IMG/VR virus record: IMGVR_UViG_3300042881_000493
Location: 1-63,860 of that record
DNA from: a virus
Taxonomy: Duplodnaviria > Caudoviricetes
Strand: one strand, 5' to 3'
Length of the DNA: 63,860 nt
Shown here: in pieces, positions 19,056 to 55,139 of the stretch
How the letters are laid out: the number at the start of each line of letters is the position of its first letter
How positions within the stretch are numbered: position 1 is the stretch's first letter
Notes under the pieces: model-generated
Databases searched by the model: none
The model's input: the letters and a program-made list of their open reading frames with translations, nothing else
What the model was told of the DNA's origin: nothing
Made by a program: the position numbers and the translations under genes

Positions 19056-19798
19056 TTACTGGATACAAAGGGTTTATTGGCCAGAACATGGTCAAAGCCC
19101 TGTCAGATCACGACCTAGATCTGTGTGAATGGGGTGATGAGTATTCCCTCTATGGAATAGATAGAGTCATTCACCTTGGTGCTATCTCAGATACAAGGTG
19201 TCAGGATTGGGTAGCACTACGCAGACAGAACGTAGGGTTTACCATTACTCTTATGGAGAGGTGCCAGCGGGCGGGGATACCTATTCAAATAGCTTCTTCG
19301 GCTTCGGTCTATGGGCCAAACAATACGACGTTTAAAGAGACTGACCCAGTAGCTCCTGCTAATCTATACGCTGAATCCAAAGCTTTAATCGAGCAGTACT
19401 TCCATGAGATGCGTCCTGTCTCGCCCGTGCAGATCTTTAGATACTTTAATGTCTATGGCCCACACGAAGATCACAAGGGGGATCAGGCTTCTCCGTTTCA
19501 CAAGTTCCGCGAGCAGGCAAAGACAGGAACGATTAAAATATTTGAAGGTTCAGAAAACTTTAAACGTGACTTTATCCATGTAGATGAAGTTATCAAAGTT
19601 CACAGAAAACTTTTAATTTTTCTAGGTTCTGGAATTTGGAACGTAGGAACTGGAAAAACAATGTCATTTTTAGACGTTGCTCGCTTGGCAGCAGATGAAT
19701 TTTCAGCGAAAATAGAGACTATTCCAATGCCTATTTTGGGTGGGTATCAAATGTATACATGTGCTGACATGACCAAACTGAACGGGATATTGAAATGA
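19043..19798 (+). CDS. hldD: ADP-L-glycero-D-manno-heptose 6-epimerase (HldD/RfaD)
   Basis: ITGYKGFIG, HLGAISDT, ASSASVYG, YAESK, RYFNVYGPHEDHKGDQAS, KRDFIHV, NVGTG, YQMYTCAD. Confidence 0.88.
   Translation: MHILITGYKGFIGQNMVKALSDHDLDLCEWGDEYSLYGIDRVIHLGAISDTRCQDWVALRRQNVGFTITLMERCQRAGIPIQIASSASVYGPNNTTFKETDPVAPANLYAESKALIEQYFHEMRPVSPVQIFRYFNVYGPHEDHKGDQASPFHKFREQAKTGTIKIFEGSENFKRDFIHVDEVIKVHRKLLIFLGSGIWNVGTGKTMSFLDVARLAADEFSAKIETIPMPILGGYQMYTCADMTKLNGILK
19604..19623 (-). promoter_or_regulatory. 20-bp palindromic motif copy inside hldD
   Basis: Reverse complement is AGAAAAATTAAAAGTTTTCT, identical to 37086-37105. Confidence 0.55.
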
Positions 19799-19899
19799 GA
19801 GACTGGGCCGAGGCAATTATTGCAGCGGCCTGTATAGTCGCCTTTGTAATCTTTGGAACCTACATGATTGCATGGAGTTGGGGTTTATATGGAACTTGA
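19795..19899 (+). CDS. 34-aa single-pass membrane peptide (not in ORF track)
   Basis: ATGA overlap with hldD; MRDWAEAIIAAACIVAFVIFGTYMIAWSWGLYGT. Confidence 0.55.
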   Translation: MRDWAEAIIAAACIVAFVIFGTYMIAWSWGLYGT

Positions 19900-20362
19900 G
19901 TATTACACCAAGATTATTGGTGCGGTAACTGCCTCAACTGCCATGATCGGTGGTGGTTATACACTTGCCGACAAGTTTGGTGTGTTCCACAAGGACATTC
20001 TCAAATGGTCACCAGAGCACTTTCAAATATCCGATGCACCTGCAAATGGCGAATTCAAGGTTGTAGTGGCTCGTCAGAAGCTCAGAGATAACTGCGAAGT
20101 TACGTCATTTAAAATAGAGGTGCGGGATTCTGAGTTGGTTGTACACCCAGCCAAACCTAGCATTGCAACGTTTTCAGGCCCAGCCAGCGACACAGTAGAT
20201 AAGTTTGGATACAAGTTTAAACTTGACACTACTTCACAAGTGACACCCGGCGTTGCTACGTTAATGGCTCACATTAAATACAAGTGCCCCGAAGGTGAAG
20301 TAATTGTCAATTACCCTGCACATAAAAACTTAATGTTTACAATAAAGGAATCCAATGTTTGA
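19889..20362 (+). CDS. Membrane-anchored hypothetical protein next to the lysis genes
   Basis: N-terminal hydrophobic stretch; two Cys; overlaps both neighbours. Confidence 0.6.
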   Translation: MELEYYTKIIGAVTASTAMIGGGYTLADKFGVFHKDILKWSPEHFQISDAPANGEFKVVVARQKLRDNCEVTSFKIEVRDSELVVHPAKPSIATFSGPASDTVDKFGYKFKLDTTSQVTPGVATLMAHIKYKCPEGEVIVNYPAHKNLMFTIKESNV

Positions 20363-20849
20363 TGTATTAAGTGGTGGTATTTTGGGTTCAGTATTTGGTG
20401 GCTTGTTCCGTATGGCCCCCGAGGTGCTGAAGTTCTTTGACAAGAAGAACGAGCGCCAGCATGAACTGTTGATGTTTACACGCCAATGTGAACTAGAGAC
20501 ATTACGTGGTCAGCAGAAGTTGGCTGAGATTGGCGCACAGCGGGAAGCCGCTATTGACGTAGGCGTAATGGATGCGTTTCAGTCTGCCATAGAGCAGCAA
20601 GCCACAATGGTCAAAGCCGCTGGTGGTTGGGCTGCATCTTTATCTGCATCTGTCAGGCCAGTCGTAACTTACTGGGTTTTGTTTGTGTGGAGCTTTATCC
20701 ACGTATGGTTTGCATGGAACGCATGGATTACTGGCGCTCCTCCTGTAGAAGTTTTTAAGATAATGATGTCTCCTGACTTTTCGGCTTTGCTGGCTGGGAC
20801 AATTAACTTCTGGTTCCTTGATCGTACATTAGCAAAAAGGGGTTTATAA
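20355..20849 (+). CDS. Putative holin
   Basis: Hydrophobic N-terminus; SASVRPVVTY, TM helix, FWFLDR (holin-of-3TM-like); precedes the lysozyme. Confidence 0.65.
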   Translation: MFDVLSGGILGSVFGGLFRMAPEVLKFFDKKNERQHELLMFTRQCELETLRGQQKLAEIGAQREAAIDVGVMDAFQSAIEQQATMVKAAGGWAASLSASVRPVVTYWVLFVWSFIHVWFAWNAWITGAPPVEVFKIMMSPDFSALLAGTINFWFLDRTLAKRGL

Positions 20850-20969
20850 ATGGCACACGCTACTACTTGTTTGGTTAACGAAGACGGCCCATGCACTTGT
20901 GGGTTTGAAGAGATTCTTGAGGATGAGGCAAGAGAAGCCGCACAAGAGCATCTTGAAGAAGAGCAATGA
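20850..20969 (+). CDS. 39-aa acidic Cys/His peptide (not in ORF track)
   Basis: MAHATTCLVNEDGPCTCGFEEILEDE...; fills the holin-endolysin gap exactly, ATGA overlap. Confidence 0.5.
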   Translation: MAHATTCLVNEDGPCTCGFEEILEDEAREAAQEHLEEEQ

Positions 20970-21409
20970 ACCTAGCACTAGCCGCAGAGATGTGCAAACG
21001 GTTTGAGGGTTTTCGCTCCAAGCCGTATCTTTGCCCCGCCAATGTAGCCACGATTGGCTACGGTTCTACCTACTACGCAGATAAGCGCAAGGTAACTTTA
21101 GAAGATGCACCAATGAGTCAGGAAGAAGCTCACGCGCTTTTAATGATTGAGCTTGAGCATACGTACCTACCCGGTGTTCTGCGTAACTGTCCCGGCTTAA
21201 TTCTGGACGAACGCAGGTGCAACGCCATCGTGGACTTTGCCTACAATTTGGGCACAGGACGCTTGCAAACATCTACGTTAAAGAGGAAAATCAATGCCAA
21301 TGATTGGGAAGGAGCAAAAGAACAACTTATGCTCTGGACTAAGGGTGGCGGTCGAGTACTGCCGGGACTATTAAAACGCCGCACGGCTGAGTGCGCTTTG
21401 TTGGATTGA
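20966..21409 (+). CDS. Endolysin, GH24 phage lysozyme
   Basis: FEG...PYLCPANVATIGYGST, FAYNLG, LPGLLKRRTAE. Confidence 0.92.
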   Translation: MNLALAAEMCKRFEGFRSKPYLCPANVATIGYGSTYYADKRKVTLEDAPMSQEEAHALLMIELEHTYLPGVLRNCPGLILDERRCNAIVDFAYNLGTGRLQTSTLKRKINANDWEGAKEQLMLWTKGGGRVLPGLLKRRTAECALLD

Positions 21410-21412
21410 CCA

Positions 21413-34700: not shown

Positions 34701-37087
34701 CTCCTGTCGGCTATATGCAAGCCCGCCTGTCTAAGAGTGTAGACGGTGCTCTAGAGGGTATCCTGTTCAACGGTCATGTCTTCAATGACGGTGGTGCATT
34801 GAACATTAAACCAAACACCAAAGGTTTGATTGAATCTTTGAAGCCTTTGGGTAATGAGGTTGACCGTTATCAGATGTGGGTTGCACTGAACCGCGAGTCA
34901 CGTTTACCAGAAGAGAAGCGTTCACGTAACGATGACATGGATTACTTGGTAGCAAATCGTGCCAAATTAGCCGAAGGTACGATCAACGGTAAGTCAAGAC
35001 TTGAGTTGTACAACTCTGTTCTTAATGATATGAACGGACTTAACAAGTCAGTACTTGATGTAGCTTTGGAGCAGGGGTTGATTGACAAGTTCAGTTACGA
35101 CAACTTTGCCGGCGACATGTACTACATTCCTTTCTATCGCCAGATGGAAGAGGATGTTAAAGGTGGTAAGACTCCTTCGGGATTGACTCAACAAAACTTT
35201 TCTAAAGCTTTGAAGGGCGGTAGTGATCGTCCGTTTGGTGACTTGATGGAGAACACTCTGCGTAACTGGAGTCACATCCTGTCTGCGTCGATGAAGAACC
35301 AAGCCGCCGTTACAACGATTAAAGATGCAGCCGAGCTAGGTGCTGTGGAGCCTGCGTCTGAGCCGGGTAAAGATACAGTTGAAGTTAAGGTTAATGGTAA
35401 GAACAAATACTTTACGATCTTAGATCCTCTCCTGCTTGAGTCCATTTCATCTATTGGTTACTTAGGGCCACAGAATAAGTTCCTTGATGTATCTCGTGAC
35501 TTCAAGAACCTCTTGCAGTACGGCGTTACGATGTCTCCAGCGTTCAAGGTAAACAACTTGTTCCGTGATTCCGTACAAGCTATGGCTGTGTCTGACTTAA
35601 AAAAGAATCCTTTTGCCAACGTGGTAGATGGCTGGATAGCTACAGACAAGAACAATCCTGCACATATCTCCGCTTTGGCCGGTGGTGCTATCTTTAACTT
35701 TGGTACGGCTTATGAGGGTAATCAATCTAAACTAATTAAAAGATTGATTGAAAAAGGTGTTAAAGAGTCTGATATTTTAGATACCCCAGATAAAATCAAA
35801 GCCGGTTTGTCTAAGCTCTTTGACAAGTATGAAGAACTAGGTAACAAGTCTGAAGCCGCTAACCGCATGGCTTTGTACAACCAGTTGCGTGAGCGGGGAC
35901 TGTCTCATTTACAAGCATCGTTTGAAGCTCGTGACTTGATGGACTTCTCCATGCAAGGATCGTTTAGTGCATTCCGTTACCTGACTCAGGTCGTACCGTT
36001 TATGAACGCACGTATCCAAGGCTTATACAAGCTGGGTCGTGACGGTATTATTCCAACTGGCCGAGTGTTCTACAACTCATTGACTGGTAAAGAGATTGAC
36101 CTTAACGATAAGAAGAAGGCTCAGGCTTTCTCTATCATTACAAGCGCGGTTTGTCTTGCTTCTCTTGCTTTGTATGCTGGCTTTAAAGATGACGAAGAGT
36201 TCCAGAAACGCAGTGACTGGGATAGAGATAACTTCTGGTGGATTCGTCTGCCCGGTATGGAAGCGGCTCTTCGTATTCCTAAGCCGTTCGAGATCGGTGC
36301 TTTGGGTACAGTAGCCGAGCGCACAGCCGAGCAAATCTTTGATGCTGACTCTGAAGGTAAACAGTTTACCAGTGCTCTTAGCCGTATGCTGTGGGACACC
36401 TTTGCAATGAACTTTACACCACAAATATTTAAACCTATTGTGGATCTGTACTCTAACAAAGATAGCTTCACTGGTGCGCCTATTGAGACTGCCGGTATGG
36501 AAGCCCTGTCTAAAGCTGAGCGTAAAGCTGATACCACAAGTCCTTTGGCTATGGCTTTGTCTCCTATACTTAACATTGCATTACCAGAAAAAGCAGAGTT
36601 AAGCCCAGTTCAGGTGGAATATGCTATTAAAGGTTACTTTGGCTGGTTAGGTGGGACGATTGCCTCTACTTCTATGTACGCTGTCATGCCGTTTAAAGAC
36701 GGTGAGTATCCAGATACCAAATGGATGGACAAGGCCAGCCTTGGATTTGTCAAGAGTCTTCCTTCTAACATGTCTCAGTACACCACTGCGTTCTACGAGA
36801 GCAACAAGCAGATCCAACAAGCCTTTGCCGACATGCGTCACTATGCTGAGATTGGTGAGATGGATAAAGTCCAAGAGATCATGGAAGAGAAGGGCGACAA
36901 GATTGCTCTTCAGAAGATGTACACCCAGACTTCTAAACAGATGGCCAACATCCGTAAGCAGATTAGTATTGTTACAAACGACACTAATATGGATGGAGCT
37001 ACGAAACGGGAGCAGATTGACCAGATGAAAGAGTTAATCTCTATGCTTGCCAAACAAGCTGAAGATGTTCGTAAATCAATGAAGTAG
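31775..37087 (+). CDS. Large polyvalent ejection protein with a zincin-like HExxH domain and a C-terminal LPD38 domain
   Basis: NAHEAVHALT...EFTAEAMSNPEFQ; ARDLMDFS, VPFMNARIQG, RIPKPFEIG, NKDSFTGAPI. Confidence 0.8.
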   Translation: MATAEQYAEWLVQNQSKKGTPDFETVASAYRSLRSAPAPQPTAPSRERTYGEAAKDIGAGVVSGIGSLVQLPGQLYGLATGDFSKTGALGAGQQISKFGEEMKSAGLKAREEERARKVAESAKEGQFQAFGTALGETVKDPALLLSFIAEQAPQLLVPFGAARGVGMAAKGLGATEAVAGKAAVSGAVGAGGVQQGSDVGAGAYENIYRELKSKGASDTEAAQGALTLARQAGAAAGTISLLAQRLPGARQLEEVLAGVPGKGAAGLGGRLRTAGSTAVGETVGEIPEEVGGKFVSNLAMQQVKPEQSLTEGLGEAAAMATIGGVGLGGAAGLARRPAAPVTETTPETTAFDVTKLPPEILTRIEEITGVKQPEQEQQPMLSAEEAARQRIQMLQQKADAESAALATALPESPQEKAARAAAPPATQPSLNEQMPQATPLAELEAKQAEIDRLRLEAGLPTGASSKTPGVQPEQVVAEETPVPKIVDNRPLEDRAAKNRLLVMKNMLQNQGGDPASLTIVPHPTAEGRFAIQSLDVPVKFTKNLPETAIKRPESPVVIDPVNAYMEIARRTNTPASMRLVKDFEAGIVTREDVEAAIAAEQKAGQPLPLNYKGNGEPWFIAPETYKPRGEREIPPLSESLKPPVKEEPTVEEPPVVTTNEMPKTLQEFQVRMPIASNNPAYREAHDKQNFGILADAMARSTNPTIKRVGELSQKISRKVKIHKPGALAKKEWAGQYDSSDHSIKMRKEYAGHELVNAHEAVHALTVMSQANPTRSQKPIVEQIDKLYDHVKFELGRKGYGYGKGYTGSKSVYGLLNSMEFTAEAMSNPEFQYLLMQIPYPGKKSAWTRFTELVADLLGIKDTNALTEIINLVDKLAMKKPPKTTVAGGQTIFGKEEEAPSKVEQVKQKASEFLQKNKPLTKENLPGLPSEFVTASNNIFKPQNRTIVEKISDMQDRFWQRLAQGIADQYRTIKDYSPVGYMQARLSKSVDGALEGILFNGHVFNDGGALNIKPNTKGLIESLKPLGNEVDRYQMWVALNRESRLPEEKRSRNDDMDYLVANRAKLAEGTINGKSRLELYNSVLNDMNGLNKSVLDVALEQGLIDKFSYDNFAGDMYYIPFYRQMEEDVKGGKTPSGLTQQNFSKALKGGSDRPFGDLMENTLRNWSHILSASMKNQAAVTTIKDAAELGAVEPASEPGKDTVEVKVNGKNKYFTILDPLLLESISSIGYLGPQNKFLDVSRDFKNLLQYGVTMSPAFKVNNLFRDSVQAMAVSDLKKNPFANVVDGWIATDKNNPAHISALAGGAIFNFGTAYEGNQSKLIKRLIEKGVKESDILDTPDKIKAGLSKLFDKYEELGNKSEAANRMALYNQLRERGLSHLQASFEARDLMDFSMQGSFSAFRYLTQVVPFMNARIQGLYKLGRDGIIPTGRVFYNSLTGKEIDLNDKKKAQAFSIITSAVCLASLALYAGFKDDEEFQKRSDWDRDNFWWIRLPGMEAALRIPKPFEIGALGTVAERTAEQIFDADSEGKQFTSALSRMLWDTFAMNFTPQIFKPIVDLYSNKDSFTGAPIETAGMEALSKAERKADTTSPLAMALSPILNIALPEKAELSPVQVEYAIKGYFGWLGGTIASTSMYAVMPFKDGEYPDTKWMDKASLGFVKSLPSNMSQYTTAFYESNKQIQQAFADMRHYAEIGEMDKVQEIMEEKGDKIALQKMYTQTSKQMANIRKQISIVTNDTNMDGATKREQIDQMKELISMLAKQAEDVRKSMK

Positions 37088-37105
37088 AAAAATTAAAAGT
37101 TTTCT
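37086..37105 (+). promoter_or_regulatory. 20-bp palindromic motif copy at the convergent late/early junction
   Basis: AGAAAAATTAAAAGTTTTCT spanning the gap between two stop codons. Confidence 0.6.
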
Positions 37106-42626: not shown

Positions 42627-42653
42627 TTGCAGAAAAATTTTAATTTTTCTACG
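42627..42653 (-). promoter_or_regulatory. Palindromic motif copy; 27-bp exact inverted match to 55082-55108
   Basis: TTGCAGAAAAATTTTAATTTTTCTACG, 4 nt upstream of TTGACA. Confidence 0.7.
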
Positions 42654-42657
42654 GGAG

Positions 42658-42688
42658 TTGACAAGGCCGGAACAGTTGTGCTTATAAT
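42658..42688 (+). promoter_or_regulatory. Sigma70-type promoter
   Basis: TTGACA (42658) and TATAAT (42683); the 19-nt spacer is long. Confidence 0.6.
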
Positions 42689-42719
42689 CCGCCCGTTGCT
42701 GTCGGAGGCAATGAATTTG

Positions 42720-43741: not shown

Positions 43742-43942
43742 ATGAGGTATAACGAAGAGAATCTAACGCATGGTGGAGCAAGAAGAGGGGCGGGTCGCCC
43801 TGCTACATCGGTGGATAAGCGCAGGGTTGAGGTGCTTATGAACGAGGGTCTCTCTATGAGAGTTATTGCTGAGAGATTCGGGGTAACTGCTGCGGTTATC
43901 AAGAGAGTAATCAGGGAGATCAAGAATGGACAGACCAAGTAA
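43742..43942 (+). CDS. Small HTH DNA-binding protein
   Basis: GGARRGAGRP; GLSMRVIAERFGVTAAVIKR; AGGAG RBS. Confidence 0.75.
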   Translation: MRYNEENLTHGGARRGAGRPATSVDKRRVEVLMNEGLSMRVIAERFGVTAAVIKRVIREIKNGQTK

Positions 43943-46033: not shown

Positions 46034-46143
46034 TGGAAGAACTAAAAGCAAAACTGGAATGGGAAAAGAAATATAGCAAGATGTTGGAGGAGCTTATAGC
46101 CCACTACCAACGCGAGATTAACTATCTGAAAGCAAACACATGA
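46033..46143 (+). CDS. 36-aa hypothetical peptide
   Basis: AAGGAG RBS; TAATG and ATGA coupling. Confidence 0.5.
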   Translation: MEELKAKLEWEKKYSKMLEELIAHYQREINYLKANT

Positions 46144-46295
46144 ACGAAGCACGACAGGCGTTTGAGTCTTACATGGCCACCAAAGGCAGAAGCATTGCTG
46201 ATGCTTGGAATGGTAAGAGGTACACCAACATCAACATCAATACCAAGTGGTGTTACTTTTTAATAGGATGGACAATGAAAGGACAAGGCAAATGA
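46140..46295 (+). CDS. 51-aa hypothetical protein
   Basis: ATGA coupling at both ends. Confidence 0.5.
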   Translation: MNEARQAFESYMATKGRSIADAWNGKRYTNININTKWCYFLIGWTMKGQGK

Positions 46296-47050
46296 AACTT
46301 AATCAACTCACAATAGATGGCGGTACACAGTCACGGGTCAAGATTATTCAAGAGGCGGTGGATGAATACGCAGAGTCGCTTGCAGGTGGTGCGAGGTTTC
46401 CTCCGGTGCTTGCGTACTACGACGGCATAAATTATTACTTGACTGACGGATACCACCGGTACTTTGCCCACCAGAAGGCCGGCTTAAAGGACATCGAGGT
46501 AACAGTTGTTAACGGCACATTGAGGGATGCGATCCTTAGATCCTTTAGTGTGAATGCAGAGAACGGAAGACATCGTAGCAACGAGGACAAGCGCAACGCA
46601 GTTCAGGCCATGCTTGATGACTTTGAGTGGCAGTTTTGGAACAACACCGAGATAGCCAAGGCGTGTCGTGTGTCTGTGACTTTGGTCAATTTAGTTCGCG
46701 GTGGTGTTAAGCCAGAGGTCGTGAAGGTTACTCGCAATGGTAAAGTGTTTGAGCGTAAGGCTAAGTATGAGAAGCCCGAAGAAGAACCCAAGCATGACAC
46801 TTCAGGAGATGTGATTAAGTCATTGGCAGATGAGAACGACAAGCTGAAGGATCGTTTGGCGGTGGCAGTTTATGCGGCTGACGAGTCAGAGAAGAAGTTA
46901 GTTGAGAACACTATCGCGCAGTTGCGTGAGGATATTCGTTTGTTAGAGATCGAATTGAAGTCTACCCGTATCAGTCGGGACACATTGCTTAATGAAAATG
47001 CGGCAATGAAAAAGCAAATTGCAGCGATGCAAAGACAATTAAAGAAGTGA
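46292..47050 (+). CDS. ParB/Srx N-terminal domain protein with a coiled-coil tail
   Basis: GGTQSR, FPPV, YYLTDGYHRY.A, NTEIAKACRVS. Confidence 0.8.
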   Translation: MKLNQLTIDGGTQSRVKIIQEAVDEYAESLAGGARFPPVLAYYDGINYYLTDGYHRYFAHQKAGLKDIEVTVVNGTLRDAILRSFSVNAENGRHRSNEDKRNAVQAMLDDFEWQFWNNTEIAKACRVSVTLVNLVRGGVKPEVVKVTRNGKVFERKAKYEKPEEEPKHDTSGDVIKSLADENDKLKDRLAVAVYAADESEKKLVENTIAQLREDIRLLEIELKSTRISRDTLLNENAAMKKQIAAMQRQLKK

Positions 47051-47098
47051 GTAAAGCCTAAGCCCACAGGCTAATGTGTGGGTAGCTGGAGAAACAAT

Positions 47099-48574
47099 AT
47101 GGGATTAGAGTTACGGCCTTATCAGAAGGCTACGCTAGAGGCATTGCGTAAGGGGTTTGCATCGGGCAAAAAAAGCCTGATGCTCTACGCCCCCACGGGT
47201 GCAGGTAAAACGGAGATGGCTATCGCTTTGCTCGAAGCCACAAGCCAGAAGGGTAATCGGGCGGCAATGATCTTAGACAGGATCATTCTGTGCGATCAGA
47301 CGAGTCAACGGCTAGACAAATACAACATAGATCATGGAGTCTTACAGTCAGGTCACTGGCGTGATCTCCCGTCTGAGAAGATACAGATCTGTTCGGCTCA
47401 GACATTGGAGAGACGCGAGGAGTTTCCCAATCTAAACCTACTCATCATTGACGAAGCCCACCAGACCCGTGCGGCAACAGTCGAGTTCATCAAGAACAAT
47501 CCAGCGATCAGAGTCATAGGTCTGAGTGCTACACCTTTTACCAAGGGGTTAGCCAAGGTCTATGAGGATGTGGTCTCTACTGTCACGACACAAGAGTTGG
47601 TAGATGACAAGGTGCTTGTCCCGCTAAAAGTATTTATTGCCAAAGAAATAAATATGGAAGGGGCTAAGAAGGTGGCGGGCGAATGGTCTCCTATCGAGAC
47701 TACTAAACGGGGTATGCAGATCACAGGCGACATCGTGGTGGAGTGGGAGAAAAAGACCAATGAGATATTTGGTAAGCCGGCAAAGACGATTGTGTTCTGC
47801 TCCGGTGTAGCTCATGGTGCTGACTTGGCGCAGAAGTTTGGTGATCGTGGCTATAACTTTATCAATATCAGTTATCGGGATGACGATCAGTATAAGAAGG
47901 ATGTGATCGAGGAGTTTAGTAAGCCAAACACAGAGATTCAAGGGTTGATTGCTACTGACATCCTGACTAAAGGATTTGATGTGTCCGATGTGATGATTGG
48001 GGTATCGGCTAGGCCGTTCTCTAAGTCCTTGTCCTCCCACATTCAGCAGATGGGACGGGTCATGCGCGGTCATGAAGGGAAAGAGTTTGCCGTGTGGTTG
48101 GATCATTCGGGTAACTATCTTAGATTCCGCGAGGAGTGGGATGAGGTGTTTGGTGGTGGTGTTAGTGAACTAGATGACGGGGCGGAGAAGACTAAGAAAG
48201 AACCAAGCGAGAAGGAAAAAGAATTAGCTAAGTGTCCTGCGTGTGGGGCTTTGTGGCCTTTGAATTCAGATATGTGCAAGTCATGTGGACATATACGGCA
48301 GAGAAAGACCAAGGTCGAGGCGGTAGCGGGTGAGATGGAGGAGTTGACTGGCACTATGGCTCGCGAGAGTAAGCAGTTGTGGTGGTCGATGATGAACTGG
48401 TACATGAAATACAACGGATGGTCGAAGGGACGGGCGGCTAATGTGTACCGAGAGAAGTTCGGAGTCTGGCCTCGCGGGTTGGAGGACAATCCGGTCATGC
48501 CGGATGCAAATGTTTCTAAGTTTGTGCAGGATGGGATCAATAGATACGTTAAGTCAATCAGGAGGATGCGTTAA
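47099..48574 (+). CDS. Superfamily 2 DNA helicase with a C-terminal zinc ribbon
   Basis: APTGAGKT, IIDEAH, GLSATP, LTKGFD, QQMGRVMR, CPAC...CKSC. Confidence 0.92.
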   Translation: MGLELRPYQKATLEALRKGFASGKKSLMLYAPTGAGKTEMAIALLEATSQKGNRAAMILDRIILCDQTSQRLDKYNIDHGVLQSGHWRDLPSEKIQICSAQTLERREEFPNLNLLIIDEAHQTRAATVEFIKNNPAIRVIGLSATPFTKGLAKVYEDVVSTVTTQELVDDKVLVPLKVFIAKEINMEGAKKVAGEWSPIETTKRGMQITGDIVVEWEKKTNEIFGKPAKTIVFCSGVAHGADLAQKFGDRGYNFINISYRDDDQYKKDVIEEFSKPNTEIQGLIATDILTKGFDVSDVMIGVSARPFSKSLSSHIQQMGRVMRGHEGKEFAVWLDHSGNYLRFREEWDEVFGGGVSELDDGAEKTKKEPSEKEKELAKCPACGALWPLNSDMCKSCGHIRQRKTKVEAVAGEMEELTGTMARESKQLWWSMMNWYMKYNGWSKGRAANVYREKFGVWPRGLEDNPVMPDANVSKFVQDGINRYVKSIRRMR

Positions 48575-49398
48575 TGGAATTCATTTCATTTTGCAGGGCG
48601 CACGGGGTATTGATCGACATCCCTCCACCGATAGGAGTCTGGAGAAGATACCCAACGGATGACCACCCAAAGAAAAGAAACGGGGCGGTCAAGTTCATGG
48701 GAGATCACGGGTTTGTGCAGAACCATGCGGTCGATACCGAGGTATCTGTGTGGCAACCAGAGACACCGATCAAGATTGACAGAAAGAAAATAGCCAAGGA
48801 TCTTGCGGTGGTCGAGGCTAAACGCAGGGCAGATCAGGAAGATGCAGTCAAGCGGGCTGCTTTTATCTTGAGTCAGGCGGGTATTGGTAAGCATCCGTAT
48901 CTAGACAAGAAGGGTTTTGTAGGCGCAGAAGATATGGTGTGGGGGCATGAGGGTAAGAAAACAATGGTCATTCCCATGCGGGTGGATGGACACTTAGTCG
49001 GATGTCAGCTAATCGAGGAGGATGGATCTAAGAAGTTTCTGTATGGTCAGCGCACCAGTAATGCGGAGTTGGTCATGGATAACAAGGGGATTCATATACT
49101 TTGTGAAGGTTACGCAACGGGTCTGTCTATCCAAGAGGCTTTTAGAAAGATGAGCCGGAGGTACACGATCCATGTTTGCTTCAGCGCGGGGAACATGAAG
49201 AAGGTGGCGCAGGGCTTACCGGATGGACTCATAGTTGCGGACAACGATAAAAGCAAGACGGGGGAGCGGGTTGCTAAGGAGATCGGATGGCCTTACTGGA
49301 TGAGCGATGTCGAGGGAGAGGACGCTAACGACACTCACCAAAGGATAGGCGTTCTCCGGTTTGGATTAAGCCTAGTACGCTCATTGAACTTGGTCTGA
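48574..49398 (+). CDS. TOPRIM-domain primase (TraC-like)
   Basis: HPYLDKKG, GCQLI..DGSKKFL.G, CEGYATGLS, VCFSAGN, ADND, DAND. Confidence 0.85.
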   Translation: MEFISFCRAHGVLIDIPPPIGVWRRYPTDDHPKKRNGAVKFMGDHGFVQNHAVDTEVSVWQPETPIKIDRKKIAKDLAVVEAKRRADQEDAVKRAAFILSQAGIGKHPYLDKKGFVGAEDMVWGHEGKKTMVIPMRVDGHLVGCQLIEEDGSKKFLYGQRTSNAELVMDNKGIHILCEGYATGLSIQEAFRKMSRRYTIHVCFSAGNMKKVAQGLPDGLIVADNDKSKTGERVAKEIGWPYWMSDVEGEDANDTHQRIGVLRFGLSLVRSLNLV

Positions 49399-49578
49399 GT
49401 AATACATGTAGTCAACGCTCAAGATTTCGGGGTGCATAGCCTCCGCGATCTTGAGGTTTGACAGTATCTCTAAGCCGATTTCGTAGCTCATCATGCCGTG
49501 TCCTATGTGGTCAGACTTGACAGTTACGAAACCTTTTTCATCTTCTACGAGATAGATTGCGAACAGAGTTTTCTTCAT
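49381..49578 (-). CDS. Hypothetical protein
   Basis: Last gene of the leftward array; start taken at MKKTLF. Confidence 0.55.
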   Translation of the reverse strand: MKKTLFAIYLVEDEKGFVTVKSDHIGHGMMSYEIGLEILSNLKIAEAMHPEILSVDYMYYSDQVQ

Positions 49579-49760
49579 TAAAAGATTTTGCCAAGCAAAT
49601 AGCCTATTGCAATACAAACTACGGCAAATTGCAAGGTCTCAAGCCAGTAAGTCGGAGGTTCTTCTGTGATTTCTATGGCACACCCGTAGCGGGCGCGGTG
49701 CTCTGAGTCCTTGGGAAAGGCTTCGGCTAGGGTGCGTGGGTATTTGCGTAATGTATCCAT
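49578..49760 (-). CDS. Small membrane protein
   Basis: RKYPRTLAEAFP; C-terminal TM helix. Confidence 0.6.
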   Translation of the reverse strand: MDTLRKYPRTLAEAFPKDSEHRARYGCAIEITEEPPTYWLETLQFAVVCIAIGYLLGKIF

Positions 49761-49763
49761 GAT

Positions 49764-49928
49764 TTACTCCATTGATTCTTTTACTTGAATAAGTTCTTCG
49801 AGGGTGTCGATGATAAAGCCGTAGAGGTCTGTCACTTCCTGCGGTTTACCCTCGGCAAAAGCCCTGCGTTCCATGTCTCGGAATATGTCTAGCTTCTCAT
49901 CGTCCCAGTAGCTTGATTGGTAGTTCAT
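49764..49928 (-). CDS. 54-aa hypothetical protein (not in ORF track)
   Basis: MNYQSSYWDDEKL...; GAGGTG RBS. Confidence 0.55.
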   Translation of the reverse strand: MNYQSSYWDDEKLDIFRDMERRAFAEGKPQEVTDLYGFIIDTLEELIQVKESME

Positions 49929-50104
49929 GGTGTCACCTCATAAACGTTGTCAATAGACCAGTCGCCTCCGATACCCTGATCGACAGGGATAAACGCTCCT
50001 CCGTCCATGTCCTTGGCTATGGCATAGGCTTCGTCCTCATTTGCAGCCTCTACGTGTTCATAAAAGTATGTTGTTAGCTTGGCAATTACTTTGTAAGTTT
50101 TCAT
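49925..50104 (-). CDS. 59-aa hypothetical protein (not in ORF track)
   Basis: MKTYKVIAKLTTY...VEAANEDEAY; AAGGAG RBS. Confidence 0.6.
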   Translation of the reverse strand: MKTYKVIAKLTTYFYEHVEAANEDEAYAIAKDMDGGAFIPVDQGIGGDWSIDNVYEVTP

Positions 50105-50421
50105 TTGTTACTCCTTGCGTAGCTCATAGCTTGTTGCCAAACGCACCATGCGTCCATGATGGATGAGTATGTGCCTAAGCTCCACTTGTCTGTGAATGCG
50201 TCTCCATCTTGCGGTGCTTCTTCTTCAAAAAAGGCTATGCACTCCTCCTCTGTTGCGCTTGCAACGCAAGTTAGGTAAGCGTCAATAAATGCCGTTTGTT
50301 CGTGTGTCGGTTCAAACTCAGCATCAAAGTTGACATGAATGTATTTAGTCTTGTCAATATCGTTGACCCAAAAGTCAATCTTTGCGTCATTAAGTATCTT
50401 GCAAACTTGTTCGTATTTCAT
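50101..50421 (-). CDS. Hypothetical protein
   Basis: GGAGG RBS; array member. Confidence 0.6.
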   Translation of the reverse strand: MKYEQVCKILNDAKIDFWVNDIDKTKYIHVNFDAEFEPTHEQTAFIDAYLTCVASATEEECIAFFEEEAPQDGDAFTDKWSLGTYSSIMDAWCVWQQAMSYARSNK

Positions 50422-50422
50422 T

Positions 50423-50623
50423 TCATTCCTCCATTAAAAAGATGCCCTTGTGTACACAAGTGGCGAACAATTCTTCGTCTGGGATTTTGTTAAACCCATC
50501 AAACCCATGCAGTTGGATGTGTCGGAACACTTCCCTCTGTTCGTCAAGTTCTCTATCAAAGAACCAATCCGTTTCGTATTCAACACAGGCGTTTACCATC
50601 TGTGTTTTAGTTATTGCAGTCAT
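50423..50623 (-). CDS. Hypothetical protein
   Basis: AAGGAG RBS. Confidence 0.6.
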   Translation of the reverse strand: MTAITKTQMVNACVEYETDWFFDRELDEQREVFRHIQLHGFDGFNKIPDEELFATCVHKGIFLMEE

Positions 50624-50639
50624 TTGCTTTCTCCTTTAA

Positions 50640-50804
50640 TTAGTCGTCTGTGTCTGTGTTTAGTTCAACAAAAGGGTACTGCTCATCATGGATAAATGCG
50701 TCATCTACCATTGAAATACCCATGCGGTTTCCTGCGTCCCAGATCAGTACATCTAGGTGCGGGGGCAGTTCTTGTAAGTGGGCGATTAGTTCCGATACTT
50801 TCAT
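50640..50804 (-). CDS. 54-aa hypothetical protein (MKVSELIAHLQELPPHLDV; not in ORF track)
   Basis: ATGA overlap; typical phage small-gene N-terminus. Confidence 0.6.
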   Translation of the reverse strand: MKVSELIAHLQELPPHLDVLIWDAGNRMGISMVDDAFIHDEQYPFVELNTDTDD

Positions 50805-50983
50805 GGCTCCATCCCTTCGTCTATTTGTTCTTGATAATGTTGGTTTATGTTTTCATCTGTGTAGGTGGTAAAGCCACCTTTGGCAAAGAAAAGCACGTTG
50901 TCTTCTAGCCATTCGGGGTTATCTAATAAGTATTGCAATTCATAACGAGTCATGGCATCAATTTTTTCTTTACGTGTCTTCAT
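50801..50983 (-). CDS. Hypothetical protein
   Basis: Starts within an AGGAGACCATCCGATG repeat. Confidence 0.65.
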   Translation of the reverse strand: MKTRKEKIDAMTRYELQYLLDNPEWLEDNVLFFAKGGFTTYTDENINQHYQEQIDEGMEP

Positions 50984-51267
50984 CGGATGGTCTCCTCAAT
51001 ATATTGTTTGGCTTCTTCCTTGGTATCAAAGCATCGGTAATCTCCGTTCTCATCAATCCACTCATCGCAAGTCTTGCCGAATATGACCCATACGTCACCT
51101 ACTCTTTCAGTCTCCCAACAGTTGGGGTCATTGAATCTCTCCATGTAAAGCTCATGCACAATCTTTTTGCAGATCGTATCTTCTACGCCAGTCAGTCGCT
51201 CAAGTTCTGCCGGATGGTTCTCTACTAAAAGATCGCTGATCTGTGCTTTTAGTTCTGCGTGTGTCAT
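50980..51267 (-). CDS. Hypothetical protein
   Basis: Ends EETIR through the repeat; GGAGG RBS. Confidence 0.65.
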   Translation of the reverse strand: MTHAELKAQISDLLVENHPAELERLTGVEDTICKKIVHELYMERFNDPNCWETERVGDVWVIFGKTCDEWIDENGDYRCFDTKEEAKQYIEETIR

Positions 51268-51662
51268 TATTCGTCCTCCTCAAGTTCATAACAACCGATT
51301 GCATCGGCTTGGCTTTTCAATACTTTCAATGGCGTGTAGTGCAGATAAACGCTGACTAATTCGTTAACGTCAACTTCCTGTAAAAGATGGTCAAGGAAAA
51401 ATTCAAGGCGGTGATTTTTGTGCATCGGCTGATCTGCGGGAATAGAAAACATCTTGCGAAGTTTCTTGTTGCTTTTCTCTCCCCAATCCCAATCGGGAAT
51501 GTTGAAAACAATGGGTTTATCAAGCCCATAAAACACCCTTTCGGCTTCCTCGTATGTTTCAAACAAATCATTTCCTGCCAAGTCCCAAAGATATTTGCCC
51601 TTTAGTTCTCCGTCCATGTGTTGCACCCGATAGCCCTCATCGGTCTTAATAATTTCAATCAT
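51267..51662 (-). CDS. Hypothetical protein
   Basis: Starts within the repeat. Confidence 0.65.
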   Translation of the reverse strand: MIEIIKTDEGYRVQHMDGELKGKYLWDLAGNDLFETYEEAERVFYGLDKPIVFNIPDWDWGEKSNKKLRKMFSIPADQPMHKNHRLEFFLDHLLQEVDVNELVSVYLHYTPLKVLKSQADAIGCYELEEDE

Positions 51663-51862
51663 CGGATGGTCTCCTCTAAAACTTCTGTGATTACAAAATC
51701 GGAATGCTCACCAAGCGCGGGCAGTCCGTCCAAATAAAAGAAAATGCGCTCATCCTCTGCATCTTCTATGCCGTCCCATTCACCAAGGGCAACAGTCATG
51801 CCGTTGAATGGTTCTTTACTGTCTACCCAGTAGCCGTTAACTGTGATCGTTTCGTACTTCAT
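51659..51862 (-). CDS. Hypothetical protein
   Basis: Bounded by two repeat copies. Confidence 0.65.
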   Translation of the reverse strand: MKYETITVNGYWVDSKEPFNGMTVALGEWDGIEDAEDERIFFYLDGLPALGEHSDFVITEVLEETIR

Positions 51863-51875
51863 CGGATGGTCTCCT

Positions 51876-52190
51876 TTAGTGAGTCAATGAATAATGGTGA
51901 TCGATGGTGTCGCGGATTAGGTCAAGGTTTCGCGTAGCCTGTGCGTGTTGTTCCTCGACTGTGCGCTGAGTTACTCGTGCGGGGCGTGTGCTCAAGATTG
52001 TTTTGTCGTAGTCTTTAAACGGCTCGTAGGAAAAATAATTTCCGTCTTTGTGCTCGACTGTGGCGGTGGTGCAGAGAGACCCGCCCCATCGTTTCATGGT
52101 GAGGATTCTCAGGCGCATGGTGTCGTTAATCTCAACGTGAGATTCTGTAATCCATCCTCGGTGTATTGATTTGTGAGTTTTGGTGTTCAT
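51876..52190 (-). CDS. Hypothetical protein
   Basis: Array member. Confidence 0.6.
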   Translation of the reverse strand: MNTKTHKSIHRGWITESHVEINDTMRLRILTMKRWGGSLCTTATVEHKDGNYFSYEPFKDYDKTILSTRPARVTQRTVEEQHAQATRNLDLIRDTIDHHYSLTH

Positions 52191-52495
52191 CTTGTTGCCT
52201 CTTGAATGTATGTTCTAACTGTGTTCATATCCTCATCGCTGACTGTGTAGATGTCGCGCTGACCCCCGTCAAGGCATAGTCCGCCCGTAGGGTCGCCCCC
52301 ATAAAAGCCCTCGTGCCCGAGTAGCGTCCCGACGTAATAACGGCTCACAAACCCGCCCCGCCCGTCATTGGTCGGGTGGTTCGAGTCGTAGAATTCAACC
52401 ATTGGCTTGTCCTCGTCATGGGTCAAACAATCGTCGCGCCCGAAGCGGTCGCCCTTTCGCACAATCCGGACGTTGTATTTATCAACTTTCATCAT
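52187..52495 (-). CDS. Hypothetical protein
   Basis: AGGAG RBS; VRIVRKGDRFG...VEFYD...FVSRYY...GLCLDGG. Confidence 0.65.
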   Translation of the reverse strand: MMKVDKYNVRIVRKGDRFGRDDCLTHDEDKPMVEFYDSNHPTNDGRGGFVSRYYVGTLLGHEGFYGGDPTGGLCLDGGQRDIYTVSDEDMNTVRTYIQEATR

Positions 52496-52555
52496 TTAGT
52501 TTCTCCTGTTCGGGCAAAAGTACCCTCCAAAGCCCTCAAAAAGGGCTTCAGGCGG

Positions 52556-52729
52556 TTATCTAGCCTCTGCCCTACCTATCTCAAACAATCGGACGATCTC
52601 CAAGCGGTTGTCGGGGTCTTTGGCGGTGGCTTGGGCTAGCCAAGTTCGGTAAAAATTCGCTCGTGTGCTGCTTTTTGTTTTCTCGAATTTATAGCCCATG
52701 TCGATGATGTAAGCGGGTGGGTAGTTCAT
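52556..52729 (-). CDS. 57-aa hypothetical protein (not in ORF track)
   Basis: MNYPPAYIIDMGYKFEK...; GAGGAGG RBS. Confidence 0.55.
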   Translation of the reverse strand: MNYPPAYIIDMGYKFEKTKSSTRANFYRTWLAQATAKDPDNRLEIVRLFEIGRAEAR

Positions 52730-53001
52730 GAGGTGGCCTCCTCTTTATGGGTCAATCGGTTAATGTGTTCGCAAAGGTCGCGCAAGTTGAAGCATTGAAA
52801 AACAATGCCCCCTCCGTAGCCTTTGGTGTGATACTTTTTTCCGCCTAATGCCTTGCCCAGTTGGACGGCTATGTCATAGCGGGCGGAAACGCTTAAATTG
52901 CTTTGCCATCCATGCACATCAAGGTGCAGAAAGTGGCAGACGTAGCGCGGGTTTCCGTTAATGTCATGGCGAATTTTTGTGAAGTCGTTTGGGGTAATCA
53001 T
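52726..53001 (-). CDS. Hypothetical protein
   Basis: Starts within the repeat; DINGNPRYVCHF...YGGGIVFQ. Confidence 0.7.
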   Translation of the reverse strand: MITPNDFTKIRHDINGNPRYVCHFLHLDVHGWQSNLSVSARYDIAVQLGKALGGKKYHTKGYGGGIVFQCFNLRDLCEHINRLTHKEEATS

Positions 53002-53049
53002 CGGATGGTCTCCTTAAAGAATTGCGGGGTCGTGGGTGGTAAACATGGT

Positions 53050-53196
53050 TCAAGCCTCCCAAATGCCGTAGCCCTTGGGCATGCGGACAAGCCCATGCTG
53101 ATGGCGGAATCGGGCGATAGCGTCCTTTTTGTTCGTGCCGTAGCAAGTCATGGCGACATGTATCCATGTTGGGATGTGGACAAAATAGCGTTTCAT
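53050..53196 (-). CDS. 48-aa hypothetical protein (MKRYFVHIPTW...; not in ORF track)
   Basis: ATG supplied by the repeat at 53194-53209. Confidence 0.6.
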   Translation of the reverse strand: MKRYFVHIPTWIHVAMTCYGTNKKDAIARFRHQHGLVRMPKGYGIWEA

Positions 53197-53609
53197 CGGA
53201 TGGTCTCCTTTGTGGTTTCTAGGTGGTTGTGAAGTTGCTCAAGTACTTGGGCGCGTGTGCCGGTATAGCCCTCGTTTTTGAGGGTCTGATAAGCGGATTG
53301 ACCCCGCTTTTTCATGCCCGCGATCTCAAGGCGCAAAGCCCCCCGAAGGGCTAGAAGGCGGAAGCGGGCGATCTTTTCGGGTGTGTCTAGGACAATGGCA
53401 TTCATTGGGTGGTCTCCTTTATGCGGTGGCGGTATAACGTGTGCGTTAACAACTTCAAAAATTGGTTTTGTGCGTGTCAGTTGTCTGCGGGCAATGGCGC
53501 GAACGTCATCGTTTTTACAGGTGGCGATTTCAAGTTCTAGATGCTCAATGCGAAGTGCCAAGATCATCCAAAGTTCTGCGGTTTGTATTGAAGTCAGGTC
53601 TAGTTGCAT
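53193..53609 (-). CDS. Hypothetical protein; probably two cassettes in frame, with an internal start at 53405
   Basis: The variant repeat gives an RBS+ATG at 53405 (MNAIVLDTPEKI...). Confidence 0.55.
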   Translation of the reverse strand: MQLDLTSIQTAELWMILALRIEHLELEIATCKNDDVRAIARRQLTRTKPIFEVVNAHVIPPPHKGDHPMNAIVLDTPEKIARFRLLALRGALRLEIAGMKKRGQSAYQTLKNEGYTGTRAQVLEQLHNHLETTKETIR

Positions 53610-53612
53610 GGT

Positions 53613-53783
53613 TTAGCTCCAGTCGGTTTGAATAAGGGCGAACAGGGCGCAAGATCCGGCAGACAGGGCAGTGACAAGCCCTAGGGTCTCGGATGGCTCT
53701 CCGATAAAAATTGATGCGACGTAACCTGCGAAGCAGATCAGCGTCTTAACGGCTAAATAAATTGTCTCAAGGTACTGGATCAT
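53613..53783 (-). CDS. 56-aa two-TM membrane protein (not in ORF track)
   Basis: MIQYLETIYLAVKTLICFAGYVASIFIG...LGLVTALSAGSCALFALI; AAGGA RBS. Confidence 0.5.
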   Translation of the reverse strand: MIQYLETIYLAVKTLICFAGYVASIFIGEPSETLGLVTALSAGSCALFALIQTDWS

Positions 53784-53800
53784 GGTTCTTCCTTTGAAGT

Positions 53801-53818
53801 AAAAGCCCCCGAAGGGGC
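53801..53818 (-). terminator. Terminator-like hairpin
   Basis: Minus strand GCCCC-TTCG-GGGGC-TTTT. Confidence 0.5.
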
Positions 53819-53822
53819 GGGA

Positions 53823-54041
53823 TTAGTTAAGAATCAAACGGCCAGTAAGACCGAAGGATTGAAGGGTCGCAATAGCGTTTTCAATGGCTTCCCTGCGTGT
53901 GTGCCCATAGAACACAGGCGGAACGTTTGTGTTGGGCAAGGCGCACTCAAATTCGATAACCCAAGCGGGTGGCACAGTTGCACGAATACGAGGGTTGTAG
54001 GTCTCGGGTTGGAAGTAACATTCAGCATTGATCTTGGTCAT
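53823..54041 (-). CDS. First gene of the leftward small-gene array
   Basis: AAGGA RBS. Confidence 0.6.
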   Translation of the reverse strand: MTKINAECYFQPETYNPRIRATVPPAWVIEFECALPNTNVPPVFYGHTRREAIENAIATLQSFGLTGRLILN

Positions 54042-54258
54042 GATTTTAAGTTCCTTTGTAAGTGGTTGTAAAGCAGTGTAACGATTTATCGTGCCTTACA
54101 CATATATAGCATAATAGAATCGTGCCATGTATCAAAAAACCCTTTAAAATCAACGCTAGGGGTTTTCCCTATGAAACACAAAGTATTAAAAAAACATGGT
54201 GAAAGTGCTTTTTAAATTGTGAACGAAATGCTTACAAAAACAAGCTGCACAAAGGGCT

Positions 54259-54278
54259 AGAAAAATTAAAATTTTTCT
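54259..54278 (+). promoter_or_regulatory. 20-bp palindromic motif upstream of terS
   Basis: AGAAAAATTAAAATTTTTCT. Confidence 0.7.
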
Positions 54279-54360
54279 GTTCCAATCGCGCCCGTAAGGA
54301 CATAGCGAAGCGGGTCGGCTTTGCTTACTATTCCCCCACTGTAGAAGGAGAGAACACACC

Positions 54361-55086
54361 ATGAAAACACTCACACGCAAGCAGATCAAGGAAGGTCTAG
54401 AACAAGTCCCAATGGCAGACATACTAGGCGTTTCCCACAAGGAGATCACCCCGAAAATGCAAACGTTCGCAAGGGAGATAGCGAAGGGGTCAAAGAAGGT
54501 TGACGCTTACCGCAAGGCTTACAAGGCGGATGCCAAACCCTCTAGCCTCGCCAAAGACCCTTACACGCTAGCCAATGATCCAAGAGTCATCCAAGAGGTC
54601 GAGGCTTACAGGCTGGCTTTAGAGTCGGCTAAACATCGCACCCCTGTTGCTTTGAGGGAGTTGGTAATTCAATCCCTTGTCCAAGTATTGATTGACCCAA
54701 AGGCTAAACAGTCAACCAAAGTGGCGAGCGCGAAGGTACTTGGCACAGTGACAGAGGTTTCCGCATTCACTGAGAGGCGCGAGGTTCGAACCATCTCATC
54801 GAGCGCAGACACCAAGGCGCAGATCATGGCGCAGTTGCGGGAGATGCTCAACGGGCGCGCGGAAGATGCGACGATCATAGAGGCCGACACCCTTTTGCGC
54901 GAGCTATCGGGCGAGACCCACCCACTCCCGACCCCCCCGAACGGCGTTGCGGAGTCCCAAGATCCTATACATACTATTCCACACGAACCAACCCAACAAG
55001 ATTCGGTTTTGGAAGACCCCCCACCCCCAGAAAAAGTTTCTGGAGCAGCACCCACCCATCCTTTTAGGGGAGACACCCCGGCGTAG
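54361..55086 (+). CDS. terS: Terminase small subunit (putative)
   Basis: ITPKMQTFAREIA...DAYRKAY HTH-like; upstream of terL; AAGGAG RBS. Confidence 0.65.
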   Translation: MKTLTRKQIKEGLEQVPMADILGVSHKEITPKMQTFAREIAKGSKKVDAYRKAYKADAKPSSLAKDPYTLANDPRVIQEVEAYRLALESAKHRTPVALRELVIQSLVQVLIDPKAKQSTKVASAKVLGTVTEVSAFTERREVRTISSSADTKAQIMAQLREMLNGRAEDATIIEADTLLRELSGETHPLPTPPNGVAESQDPIHTIPHEPTQQDSVLEDPPPPEKVSGAAPTHPFRGDTPA

Positions 55087-55139
55087 AAAAATTAAAATTT
55101 TTCTGCAAAATAATTTTCTAGAAAAATTAAAATTTTTAT
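55082..55139 (+). promoter_or_regulatory. Tandem pair of the palindromic motif upstream of the LexA-like gene
   Basis: AGAAAAATTAAAATTTTTCT at 55085 and AGAAAAATTAAAATTTTTAT at 55120. Confidence 0.75.

Follow-up and report, generated by a model that had tools for sequence, protein, structure and literature searches.

The window analyzed here is one whole virus record of 63,860 bases (IMGVR_UViG_3300042881_000493; Duplodnaviria, Caudoviricetes), rated 100% complete and linear, and the element of interest is a palindrome, AGAAAAATT-NN-AATTTTTCT, that is repeated in it. An original prediction, made from this stretch alone, had described six copies and proposed that they are operators of a LexA-like protein encoded by the phage. 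Judged from comparisons with related viral contigs, the finding is richer than described: the copies belong to a family-wide class of junction sites that are lineage-specific in sequence and change in concert. Our preferred reading, to which we give a probability of roughly 45%, is that the sites are operators or roadblocks at operon junctions, closest to the stoperators of mycobacteriophages; we infer that a protein binds them and that its binding would affect transcription. This reading is suggested by a number of copies far above chance, homologous placement in relatives, concerted change of the site sequence, a fixed distance to the -35 element of an early promoter and the existence of a lineage without the array of sites found in the window.

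Position and sequence of the six copies

With at most one mismatch allowed, the motif occurs six times in the window; the copies at 42631, 54259 and 55085 match exactly and those at 19604, 37086 and 55120 carry one mismatch, in agreement with the coordinates first reported. Extending the scan to three mismatches gave no seventh copy in the window, the reversed motif pattern had no match in it, and this motif was the only repeated palindrome family in a scan of the window. The genome-wide comparison with shuffled sequence that had been suggested as a check bears the motif out, with six copies against 0.01 expected by chance at up to two mismatches (0.09 at up to three), and none of 100 shuffled controls reached six copies. 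The copies at 19604 and 37086, for which a shared variant had been described, are exact reverse complements of one another, and the inverted pair of 27 nt at 42627-42653 and 55082-55108 is exact as well; the same 27 nt match in the relative G001. Each site has 9-bp arms, a 2-bp center, a total length of 20-22 bp and dyad symmetry, and by analogy these dimensions and this symmetry would be as in the operators of dimeric regulators. Read with AA at the center, all six copies have a T on the 5' side and five of the six a G on the 3' side, and the element is therefore oriented; its fuller form is T-AGAAAAATTAAAAKTTTTCT-R. The orientation is + at 37086, 54259, 55085 and 55120 and - at 19604 and 42631, and it is retained in the relatives G001 and G006.

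The gene layout was derived from our own picks of open reading frames (ORFs) and from PHROG and Pfam scans. A long + strand late block holds the ORF at 54361-55086, a LexA-domain protein, terL, the portal and the major head protein, runs across the ends of the record to tail, sugar-nucleotide and lysis genes, and has as its last member a 1770-aa LPD38 polyvalent protein that extends to 37087. A - strand block (37104-41984) includes Erf and an exonuclease, a + strand early block (43742-49398) encodes a small helix-turn-helix (HTH) protein, a ParB-like protein, a helicase and a primase, and a further - strand block (49381-54041) consists of small ORFs. No RNA polymerase, integrase or recombinase was recognized by the PHROG and Pfam scans of the window proteins.

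Five of the six copies are intergenic or lie at stop or start codons, and the contexts named in the original prediction (the epimerase ORF, the convergent junction, the TTGACA, the positions before terS and before the LexA-like gene) were all found as described. Site A (19604..19623, - strand) is a one-mismatch copy in the ORF 19022-19798, a nucleotide-sugar epimerase by PHROG, where it codes for HRKLLIFL. Site B (37086..37105, + strand) is at the junction of the convergent late operon, with the 1770-aa gene, and the leftward operon; it spans the 16-bp gap of the convergent genes, the flanking TAG and CTA being both stop codons, and the interval 36800-37400 around it contains no promoter-like or terminator-like match. 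Of six genomes compared, the window alone has a family-2 glycosyltransferase gene (37104-37757, - strand), whose insertion falls precisely between site B and the gene that follows. Site D (54259..54278, + strand) is in a divergent region and ends 82 bp before the ATG of the 241-aa ORF at 54361..55086 (+ strand), which lies between D and E1 and has no PHROG or Pfam family; we call it the putative small terminase gene, terS, from its place before terL and its resemblance to such genes. The leader of this gene, past site D, contains a conserved stem at 54304-54325 (AGCGAAGC / GCTTTGCT, with a variable 6-nt loop) that is present in five genomes. The first tandem copy, E1 (55085..55104, + strand), begins inside the stop codon of the putative terS, and the second, E2 (55120..55139, + strand), has a C>A variant that forms the ATG of the LexA-like gene.

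Site C (42631..42650, - strand) is immediately upstream of a conserved rightward early promoter and ends 7 bp before its TTGACA. This promoter-like element (TTGACA, 19 nt, TATAAT; 42658..42688, + strand) is conserved in five genomes, and it was missing from the listing of our promoter scan because of its 19-nt spacer. The strict promoter pattern was matched in 5 of 55 loci, and in all five the distance from site C to the -35 element is 7-8 bp. A sigma-70 promoter inside the site itself was considered, as TAAAAT gives 9-10 of 12 matches at C (- strand) and at E1, and was rejected because G006 has mostly TAAAAG and other site types have no TAAAAT. We also discarded promoters for a phage RNA polymerase; no polymerase is encoded, and the 1770-aa protein is an LPD38 polyvalent protein with no type-linked segment.

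Site sequences in related phages

The phage family is large: a terL search of viral contigs gave more than 601 related stretches bearing the gene, of which the best 80, with a TerL identity of 72-100%, were analyzed. These relatives are not independent samples, and their site types were called from scans combined with visual inspection. The closest named phages have a terL DNA identity of only about 64-67% (about 66% for HTVC027P), and the transcriptome paper on HTVC027P makes no mention of a promoter, palindrome, motif or terminator (PMC12753301). DNA of the phage is present in lake-water metagenome runs, with at least half of the sampled words in 11 of the 24 rows listed, and five rows are flagged as possible sources.

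A scan of viral contigs with the exact pattern gave 25 stretches, 15 of them (from 8 contigs) homologous to the window and 10 sharing the motif only. Comparable motifs do occur in related genomes at the same positions, with four homologous places, B, C, D and E, bearing sites, and the site sequence varies by lineage and changes jointly at these places. In G001 (47.7 kb, with blocks 74-97% identical), places A, B, C and D carry the site of the window, its G variant included; the contig stops short of place E, and all four places that it covers agree in type. G006 carries a 1-bp variant at nine sites, located at A, B, C, D, E (four copies) and one extra junction, whereas G005 and G007 have AGAAATGATTAATGATTTCT-type / AGAAATGAT-type sites at C, D and E, and in G007 at B too. 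The flanks of the sites in relatives are 73-97% identical while the site sequence differs. The lineage sequences at place E and about 830 bp upstream include AGAAAACTTAAAAGTTTTCT, AGAAATATTTAAATATTTCT, AGAATTATTTAAATAATTCT, AGAAATGATTAATGATTTCT and AGAAATGAGAACAATTTTCT and, at the same two places, AGAATCTGGAACAATTTTCT, ACACTCTAGAACTAGAGTGT, ATTACTAAACGTTTAGTAAT, TGGTAACGTTACCA and others. Loci centered on the exonuclease gene extend the pairing of a C-like with a B-like site to another eight types. In three complete genomes that are more distant, each has three sites of a type of its own, at place E and beside replication or partition genes; in G010 and G011 one site follows the ParB-like gene by 26 bp.

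The array ahead of the LexA-like gene takes at least 11 different sequences among relatives, with 2-5 copies at place E. Between the putative terS and the LexA-like gene, a 16-mer is present twice or more in 37 of the 59 loci whose sequence sufficed; on visual inspection, no fewer than 28 of the 37 are genuine arrays, and about 9 are coding repeats or doubtful. The lineage of L056, L058 and G008 has no array, its two flanking genes overlap, and a scan of its genome revealed no repeated palindrome. In the distant relatives L090-L113, a strong terminator-like element, a C6...G6 hairpin followed by TATATATTTTTT, lies between the putative terS and the LexA-like gene and precedes lineage-specific repeats; late genes would therefore need their own promoter at these repeats.

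Site types 1-6 share the outer arms TAGAA/TTCTA, and 7 of 20 site positions differ between types 1 and 4. The interior of types 5 and 6 lacks palindromic symmetry, but in these types D and E are still direct copies of identical sequence, and the sites of L040 and L044 are non-palindromic but uniform. These observations bear on whether the sites might be RNA elements, i.e. transcript hairpins acting as terminators, processing sites or protein-binding stems, which we consider highly unlikely. All six copies could be in + strand transcripts, site B is where a bidirectional terminator would be needed and no other is predicted, and some copies fold better than shuffles (E1, -8.8 kcal/mol, z -5.2). 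Against this, E2 and A fold no better than shuffles, the energies of the site hairpins run from -0.1 to -8.8 kcal/mol compared to -16.1 for a terminator-like hairpin at 42423, there is no U tract at the sites, and a search for intrinsic terminators (G+C-rich stem with a U run) gave no terminator-like match there. Furthermore, the interior of types 5 and 6 would not pair as a palindrome, the common A/G and C/T variants break a pair instead of keeping it, and site C is upstream of its own promoter. Because folds are weak and the L040 and L044 sites are uniform while non-palindromic, we favor a sequence that is read on DNA and not as a hairpin. An RNA run (X23), available as contigs, gave depth in 8 of 30 bins of the stretch; its contigs are small pieces that do not resolve transcript starts or ends.

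Site A behaves differently from the other places. It is retained in G001, and in G006 it has a T>G change that matches the other sites of that genome at the cost of an I>S replacement, but in G005, with type-4 sites, the sequence is unchanged (AGAAAACTTTTAATTTTTCT) and codes for HRKLLIFL. The suggested check of hldD homologs at HRKLLIFL thus gave a difference in G006 and none in G005. Because it does not follow the site type in G005, we regard the membership of site A as doubtful and do not count it as a functional place; from these comparisons, it would either have traveled with the epimerase gene as a relic or be a member under weak constraint.

The place of site C is kept, with lineage-specific sequence, in G001, G005, G006 and G007, and several variable features surround it. 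Directly to its left, an iteron-like cluster (42447-42630) holds two direct copies of GGGCAAATGGGGCAA, the inverted words TTGCCCCAAATGCC and TTGCCCCAA, and a palindrome of 28 bp, TTGTTTCACATATA/TATATGTGTAACAA; it is present in G000 and G001, is replaced in G005, G006 and G007, and may be a replication origin. To the right, about 600 nt after the near-consensus promoter (42690-43290) are without a convincing ORF or an Rfam match and occur as two sequence alleles among relatives, independent of site type; this stretch may be a non-coding RNA or a long leader. An HNH endonuclease gene (43292-43645), which sits in the variable stretch after the early promoter, is found in the window and G007 and is absent from G001, G005 and G006.

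Candidate readers and competing explanations

In known dispersed-operator systems, repressor and site covary. Our covariation tests around terL used 24 loci, from -10 to +11.5 kb, and the only contrast in the column test was that of type 4 against all others; together with the tests around the exonuclease gene, they cover about two thirds of the genome (from about 31 kb to the capsid gene), the tail and sugar genes at 0-31 kb being outside. The first candidate was the LexA-like protein (55138..55446, + strand), a 102-aa protein between the putative terS and terL that has only a LexA DNA-binding domain and failed the covariation test. Its sole Pfam domain, LexA_DNA_bind, spans residues 28-90 and is above the cutoff (E 6.4e-7, 29.5 bits, cutoff 23.7). 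We consider the long ORF form real because relatives conserve the protein while making synonymous changes. The protein is present in 59 of 65 TerL loci; no cultured relative with this gene was found, and the protein was unmatched among 50,697 phage records.

The original prediction had this winged-helix protein bind the sites, regulating itself and the switch from early to late genes, and the most defensible form of that proposal would have it bind through the outer TAGAA/TTCTA arms. The gene and the array go together across the family, in the window and in relatives the array touches or overlaps the gene start, and types 1-6 combine common arms with an identical LexA-like protein. The HTH is letter-identical at loci with AGAAAAATTAAAATTTTTCT, AGAAAACTTAAAAGTTTTCT, AGAAATATTTAAATATTTCT, AGAAATGATTAATGATTTCT, AGAAATGAGAACAATTTTCT or AGAATCTGGAACAATTTTCT, and it is the same in ACACTCTAGAACTAGAGTGT loci and ATTACTAAACGTTTAGTAAT loci (types 7 and 8). 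The protein is thus invariant where 7 of 20 positions of its supposed site change, as between types 1 and 4. Moreover, L060 and L061-L063 have the same protein and sites without the common arms; in a distant clade (L091, L092, L100 and L111) near-identical recognition helices go with different repeats; the array-less L056 and L058 still carry the gene; and the arm centers are about 17 bp apart, a spacing that would be unusual for a dimer on one face of the DNA. From these comparisons, the LexA-like protein could at most read the shared outer arms, and the assignment of the sites to it is contradicted, save for this weak arms-only form, which we regard as improbable. The operator idea remains the best reading of the sites; what did not stand is the proposed reader, invariant across at least six site types. 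Within the LexA-like ORF there is also a dyad, TGTCAC-GTAAAA-GTGACA, at 55175-55192, coding for VSRKSD. Relatives keep it by paired synonymous changes (TGTCGC...GCGACA), which therefore suggest a selected hairpin or binding site within the coding sequence.

Sites D and E flank the putative terS, and packaging or replication cis elements (TerS repeats of the pac type or origin iterons, with the single copies as auxiliary sites) were also weighed. Tandem 20-bp dyads at a spacing of 20-35 bp are reminiscent of the iterons of phage origins and of cosB-type repeats, and the LexA-like protein weakly matches replication-initiator PHROGs (phrog_270, 2.6e-5; phrog_391, 4.4e-4). However, the putative TerS has three main N-terminal alleles, each with several site types, that are reshuffled with respect to site type: the window and L044 share the N-terminus while their sites differ, and three type-1 loci have three N-termini. 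Type-1 and type-4 genomes have primases and helicases of 96-97% identity, a separate iteron-like cluster exists at 42447-42630, and a packaging or replication model gives no role to B and C, which are 11-17 kb off at operon borders. The packaging alternative offered originally thus lost ground, and we think a packaging or replication role quite improbable.

The other proteins with a possible DNA-binding function did not track the site type either. The ParB-like protein (46247..47050, + strand; PHROG 1033, 2.7e-18; Pfam ParB_N 18.7 bits, below the 26.3 cutoff) failed the covariation test: in nine loci, 0 of 282 columns part type 4 from types 1 and 2, a result that bears on the earlier idea of a ParB-loading site. 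The first gene after the early promoter (43742..43942, + strand) encodes a small HTH protein of 66 aa that has a GAGRP arm and matches Pfam HTH_38 (5.5e-5) and Trp_repressor (1.2e-4), in each case under the cutoff; it varies by allele and not by type; L134, with type-4 sites, has the HTH of the window, and G005, also of type 4, has a very different protein. Clustering of ORFs of at least 40 aa in the 10 kb upstream of terL (24 loci) gave no type-exclusive cluster, the column-by-column test through terL and portal to the head genes gave one stray column only, no type-exclusive protein was found within 10 kb on either side of the exonuclease gene (9 loci), and the 1770-aa protein has no type-linked stretch. 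The sole column cluster near the exonuclease gene consists of K14, H17 and G18 of a 102-aa protein (43926-44234), which has two main alleles at these columns among 24 homologs and is missing from several site-bearing genomes; because two alleles are too few, it would not be the reader of at least 11 types. Two further candidates were dropped, namely the protein at 44691-44936, second in a screen of within-type versus between-type identity, absent from several type-4 genomes and without a DNA-binding look, and an allele of the gene at 61986-62675 that seemed type-linked in five genomes and was reshuffled in L050, L061 and L063.

In the operator or roadblock reading, one sequence-specific factor would bind B, C, D and E at the borders of transcription units. 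It would act as at an operator beside the early promoter at C, bind in the divergent region before the packaging genes at D, use the multi-copy platform ahead of the LexA-like and terL late genes at E, and bind between the two convergent operons at B; in this way it would set early-to-late timing and stop read-through. Several points weigh against such a factor. Site C alone is at a recognizable promoter, the array leaves no space for a promoter ahead of the LexA-like ORF, and site A fails to follow the site type in G005; in addition, no protein that tracks site type was found in the tested two thirds or so of the genome, with every candidate DNA-binding protein reshuffled with respect to it. 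The reader could be encoded at 0-31 kb, come from the host, or be a conserved phage protein for which the TAGAA/TTCTA arms alone matter. More generally, the uniformity of the sites would be due either to an unrecognized DNA-binding protein, from the structural half of the genome or from the host, or to a mechanism free of a reader. If operators or roadblocks are indeed what the sites are, a shared regulatory architecture with swappable sites would be a handle on gene timing in such phages, and it might show how co-occurring lineages stay functionally separate despite free gene exchange.

A mechanism without a reader could take the form of short repeats at boundaries that act on one another by recombination, template switching or conversion, are uniform within a genome as a result, and mark the points of module swap, insertion or inversion. 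The concerted change of sites without a covarying protein would fit, as would the variable copy number of the array. At B there is a mosaic breakpoint, where homology with G001 ends at 37106 and resumes at 37769 and the glycosyltransferase cassette abuts the site; the extra site of G006 adjoins a segment that has been replaced (2407-3077 in window numbering); related strains have contigs that part at 55160 and 55186, beside the array; and in G010 and G011 the block that extends from the recombination genes as far as the ParB-like gene is inverted with respect to the window, with two sites as its bounds. Erf, the exonuclease and a small Hjc-like nuclease (a weak match, E 0.087) are encoded beside site C. 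On the other hand, no recombinase is encoded according to the PHROG and Pfam scans, homologous exchange would have little length to work with in 20 bp, breakpoints between genes are to be expected where operons meet in any case, and exchange among six sites in both orientations would delete the D-E gene or scramble the genome. Contigs of three lake DNA runs have no inversion or deletion joints at the sites; they cross C, D and E colinearly without strand-changing joints, and the inversion of 42.6-55.1 kb that had been put forward found no backing in them. We keep the recombination model alive because mosaic breakpoints coincide with sites, and consider it rather unlikely.

A related and likewise unlikely explanation dispenses with a matching protein reader altogether. 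Selection would then require that the copies be identical within a genome and leave the sequence free between lineages, so that the sites form a self-referential barcode, whose uniformity could be kept by copying from site to site or be needed for the pairing of sites. If true, the barcode would decide which phage modules work or recombine together.

Some features elsewhere in the window are recorded here. At 9227-16172 there are four paralogs with RCC1 repeats (PHROG 'regulator of chromosome condensation' or tail protein), interrupted by a GIY-YIG/HNH homing endonuclease at 13304-13858. A 17-nt start cassette, AGGAGACCATCCGATGA (ribosome-binding site, 7-nt spacer, ATG), stands ahead of five small leftward genes (- strand; 50984-51000, 51663, 51863, 53002 and 53197), and the word is found 5-6 times each in G001, G005, G006 and G007. 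The 100-aa protein at 40849-41151 (- strand) has an AT-hook-like tail, PKKRPGRPSIK; it is conserved in close relatives and absent from G008. Rfam and tRNA scans of the window gave no match.

Comparison with known systems

The LexA/SOS box shares with the window a LexA-type winged-helix domain encoded right behind a tandem dyad array. The SOS-box consensus is CTGT-N8-ACAG or GAAC-N4-GTTC; the window site is unlike it, and the window protein, of 102 aa, is without the S24 self-cleaving dimerization domain and does not covary with the sites. Dispersed operators of the ParB-parS or KorB type are known from plasmids and plasmid prophages, such as those of RK2 KorB and the N15 SopB centromeres. They are similar in being few identical dispersed palindromes, part of which lie at promoters, and in going with a ParB-like gene, which the window has as well; they differ in that the window has no ParA, its ParB_N match is under the cutoff, and its ParB-like protein is not partitioned by type.

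The crossover sites of serine invertases, such as hix and gix, resemble the sites in having two arms, an asymmetric 2-bp center and an A/T tract beside a conserved outer block, and the nearby small HTH protein with its GRP arm resembles the DNA-binding end of an invertase. However, no catalytic domain is encoded, no inversion was seen, and the small HTH protein does not track the type. As with the terminase repeats of pac and cosB, the window repeats flank the putative terS, but they do not covary with the DNA-binding end of TerS. With regard to host repeats of the REP type, a scan for the palindrome gave at least 120 matching stretches; the 80 that were compared (L206-L285) are scattered over unrelated A+T-rich genomes, none is homologous to the window, and a host repeat family finds no support among them.

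The closest comparison is with stoperators, which are 13-14-mers without symmetry; the temperate phages that carry them have some 20-30 copies, and these covary with a repressor of the L5 gp71 type. The stoperators of Cluster A mycobacteriophages are described as a short sequence at many intergenic junctions, oriented and phage-specific, which acts at promoters and blocks elongation (PMC9283540, PMC6550527). The sites of the window and its relatives are not members of that system: they are mostly palindromic 20-22-mers, 3-9 per genome, no integrase or repressor was recognized, and a cognate covarying repressor was not found in about two thirds of the genome, with 0-31 kb outside. The likeness is that one short oriented sequence is placed at intergenic junctions genome-wide and differs between related phages, as it does in the window and its relatives, and the unusual part here is the uniformity of the sites without a covarying protein.

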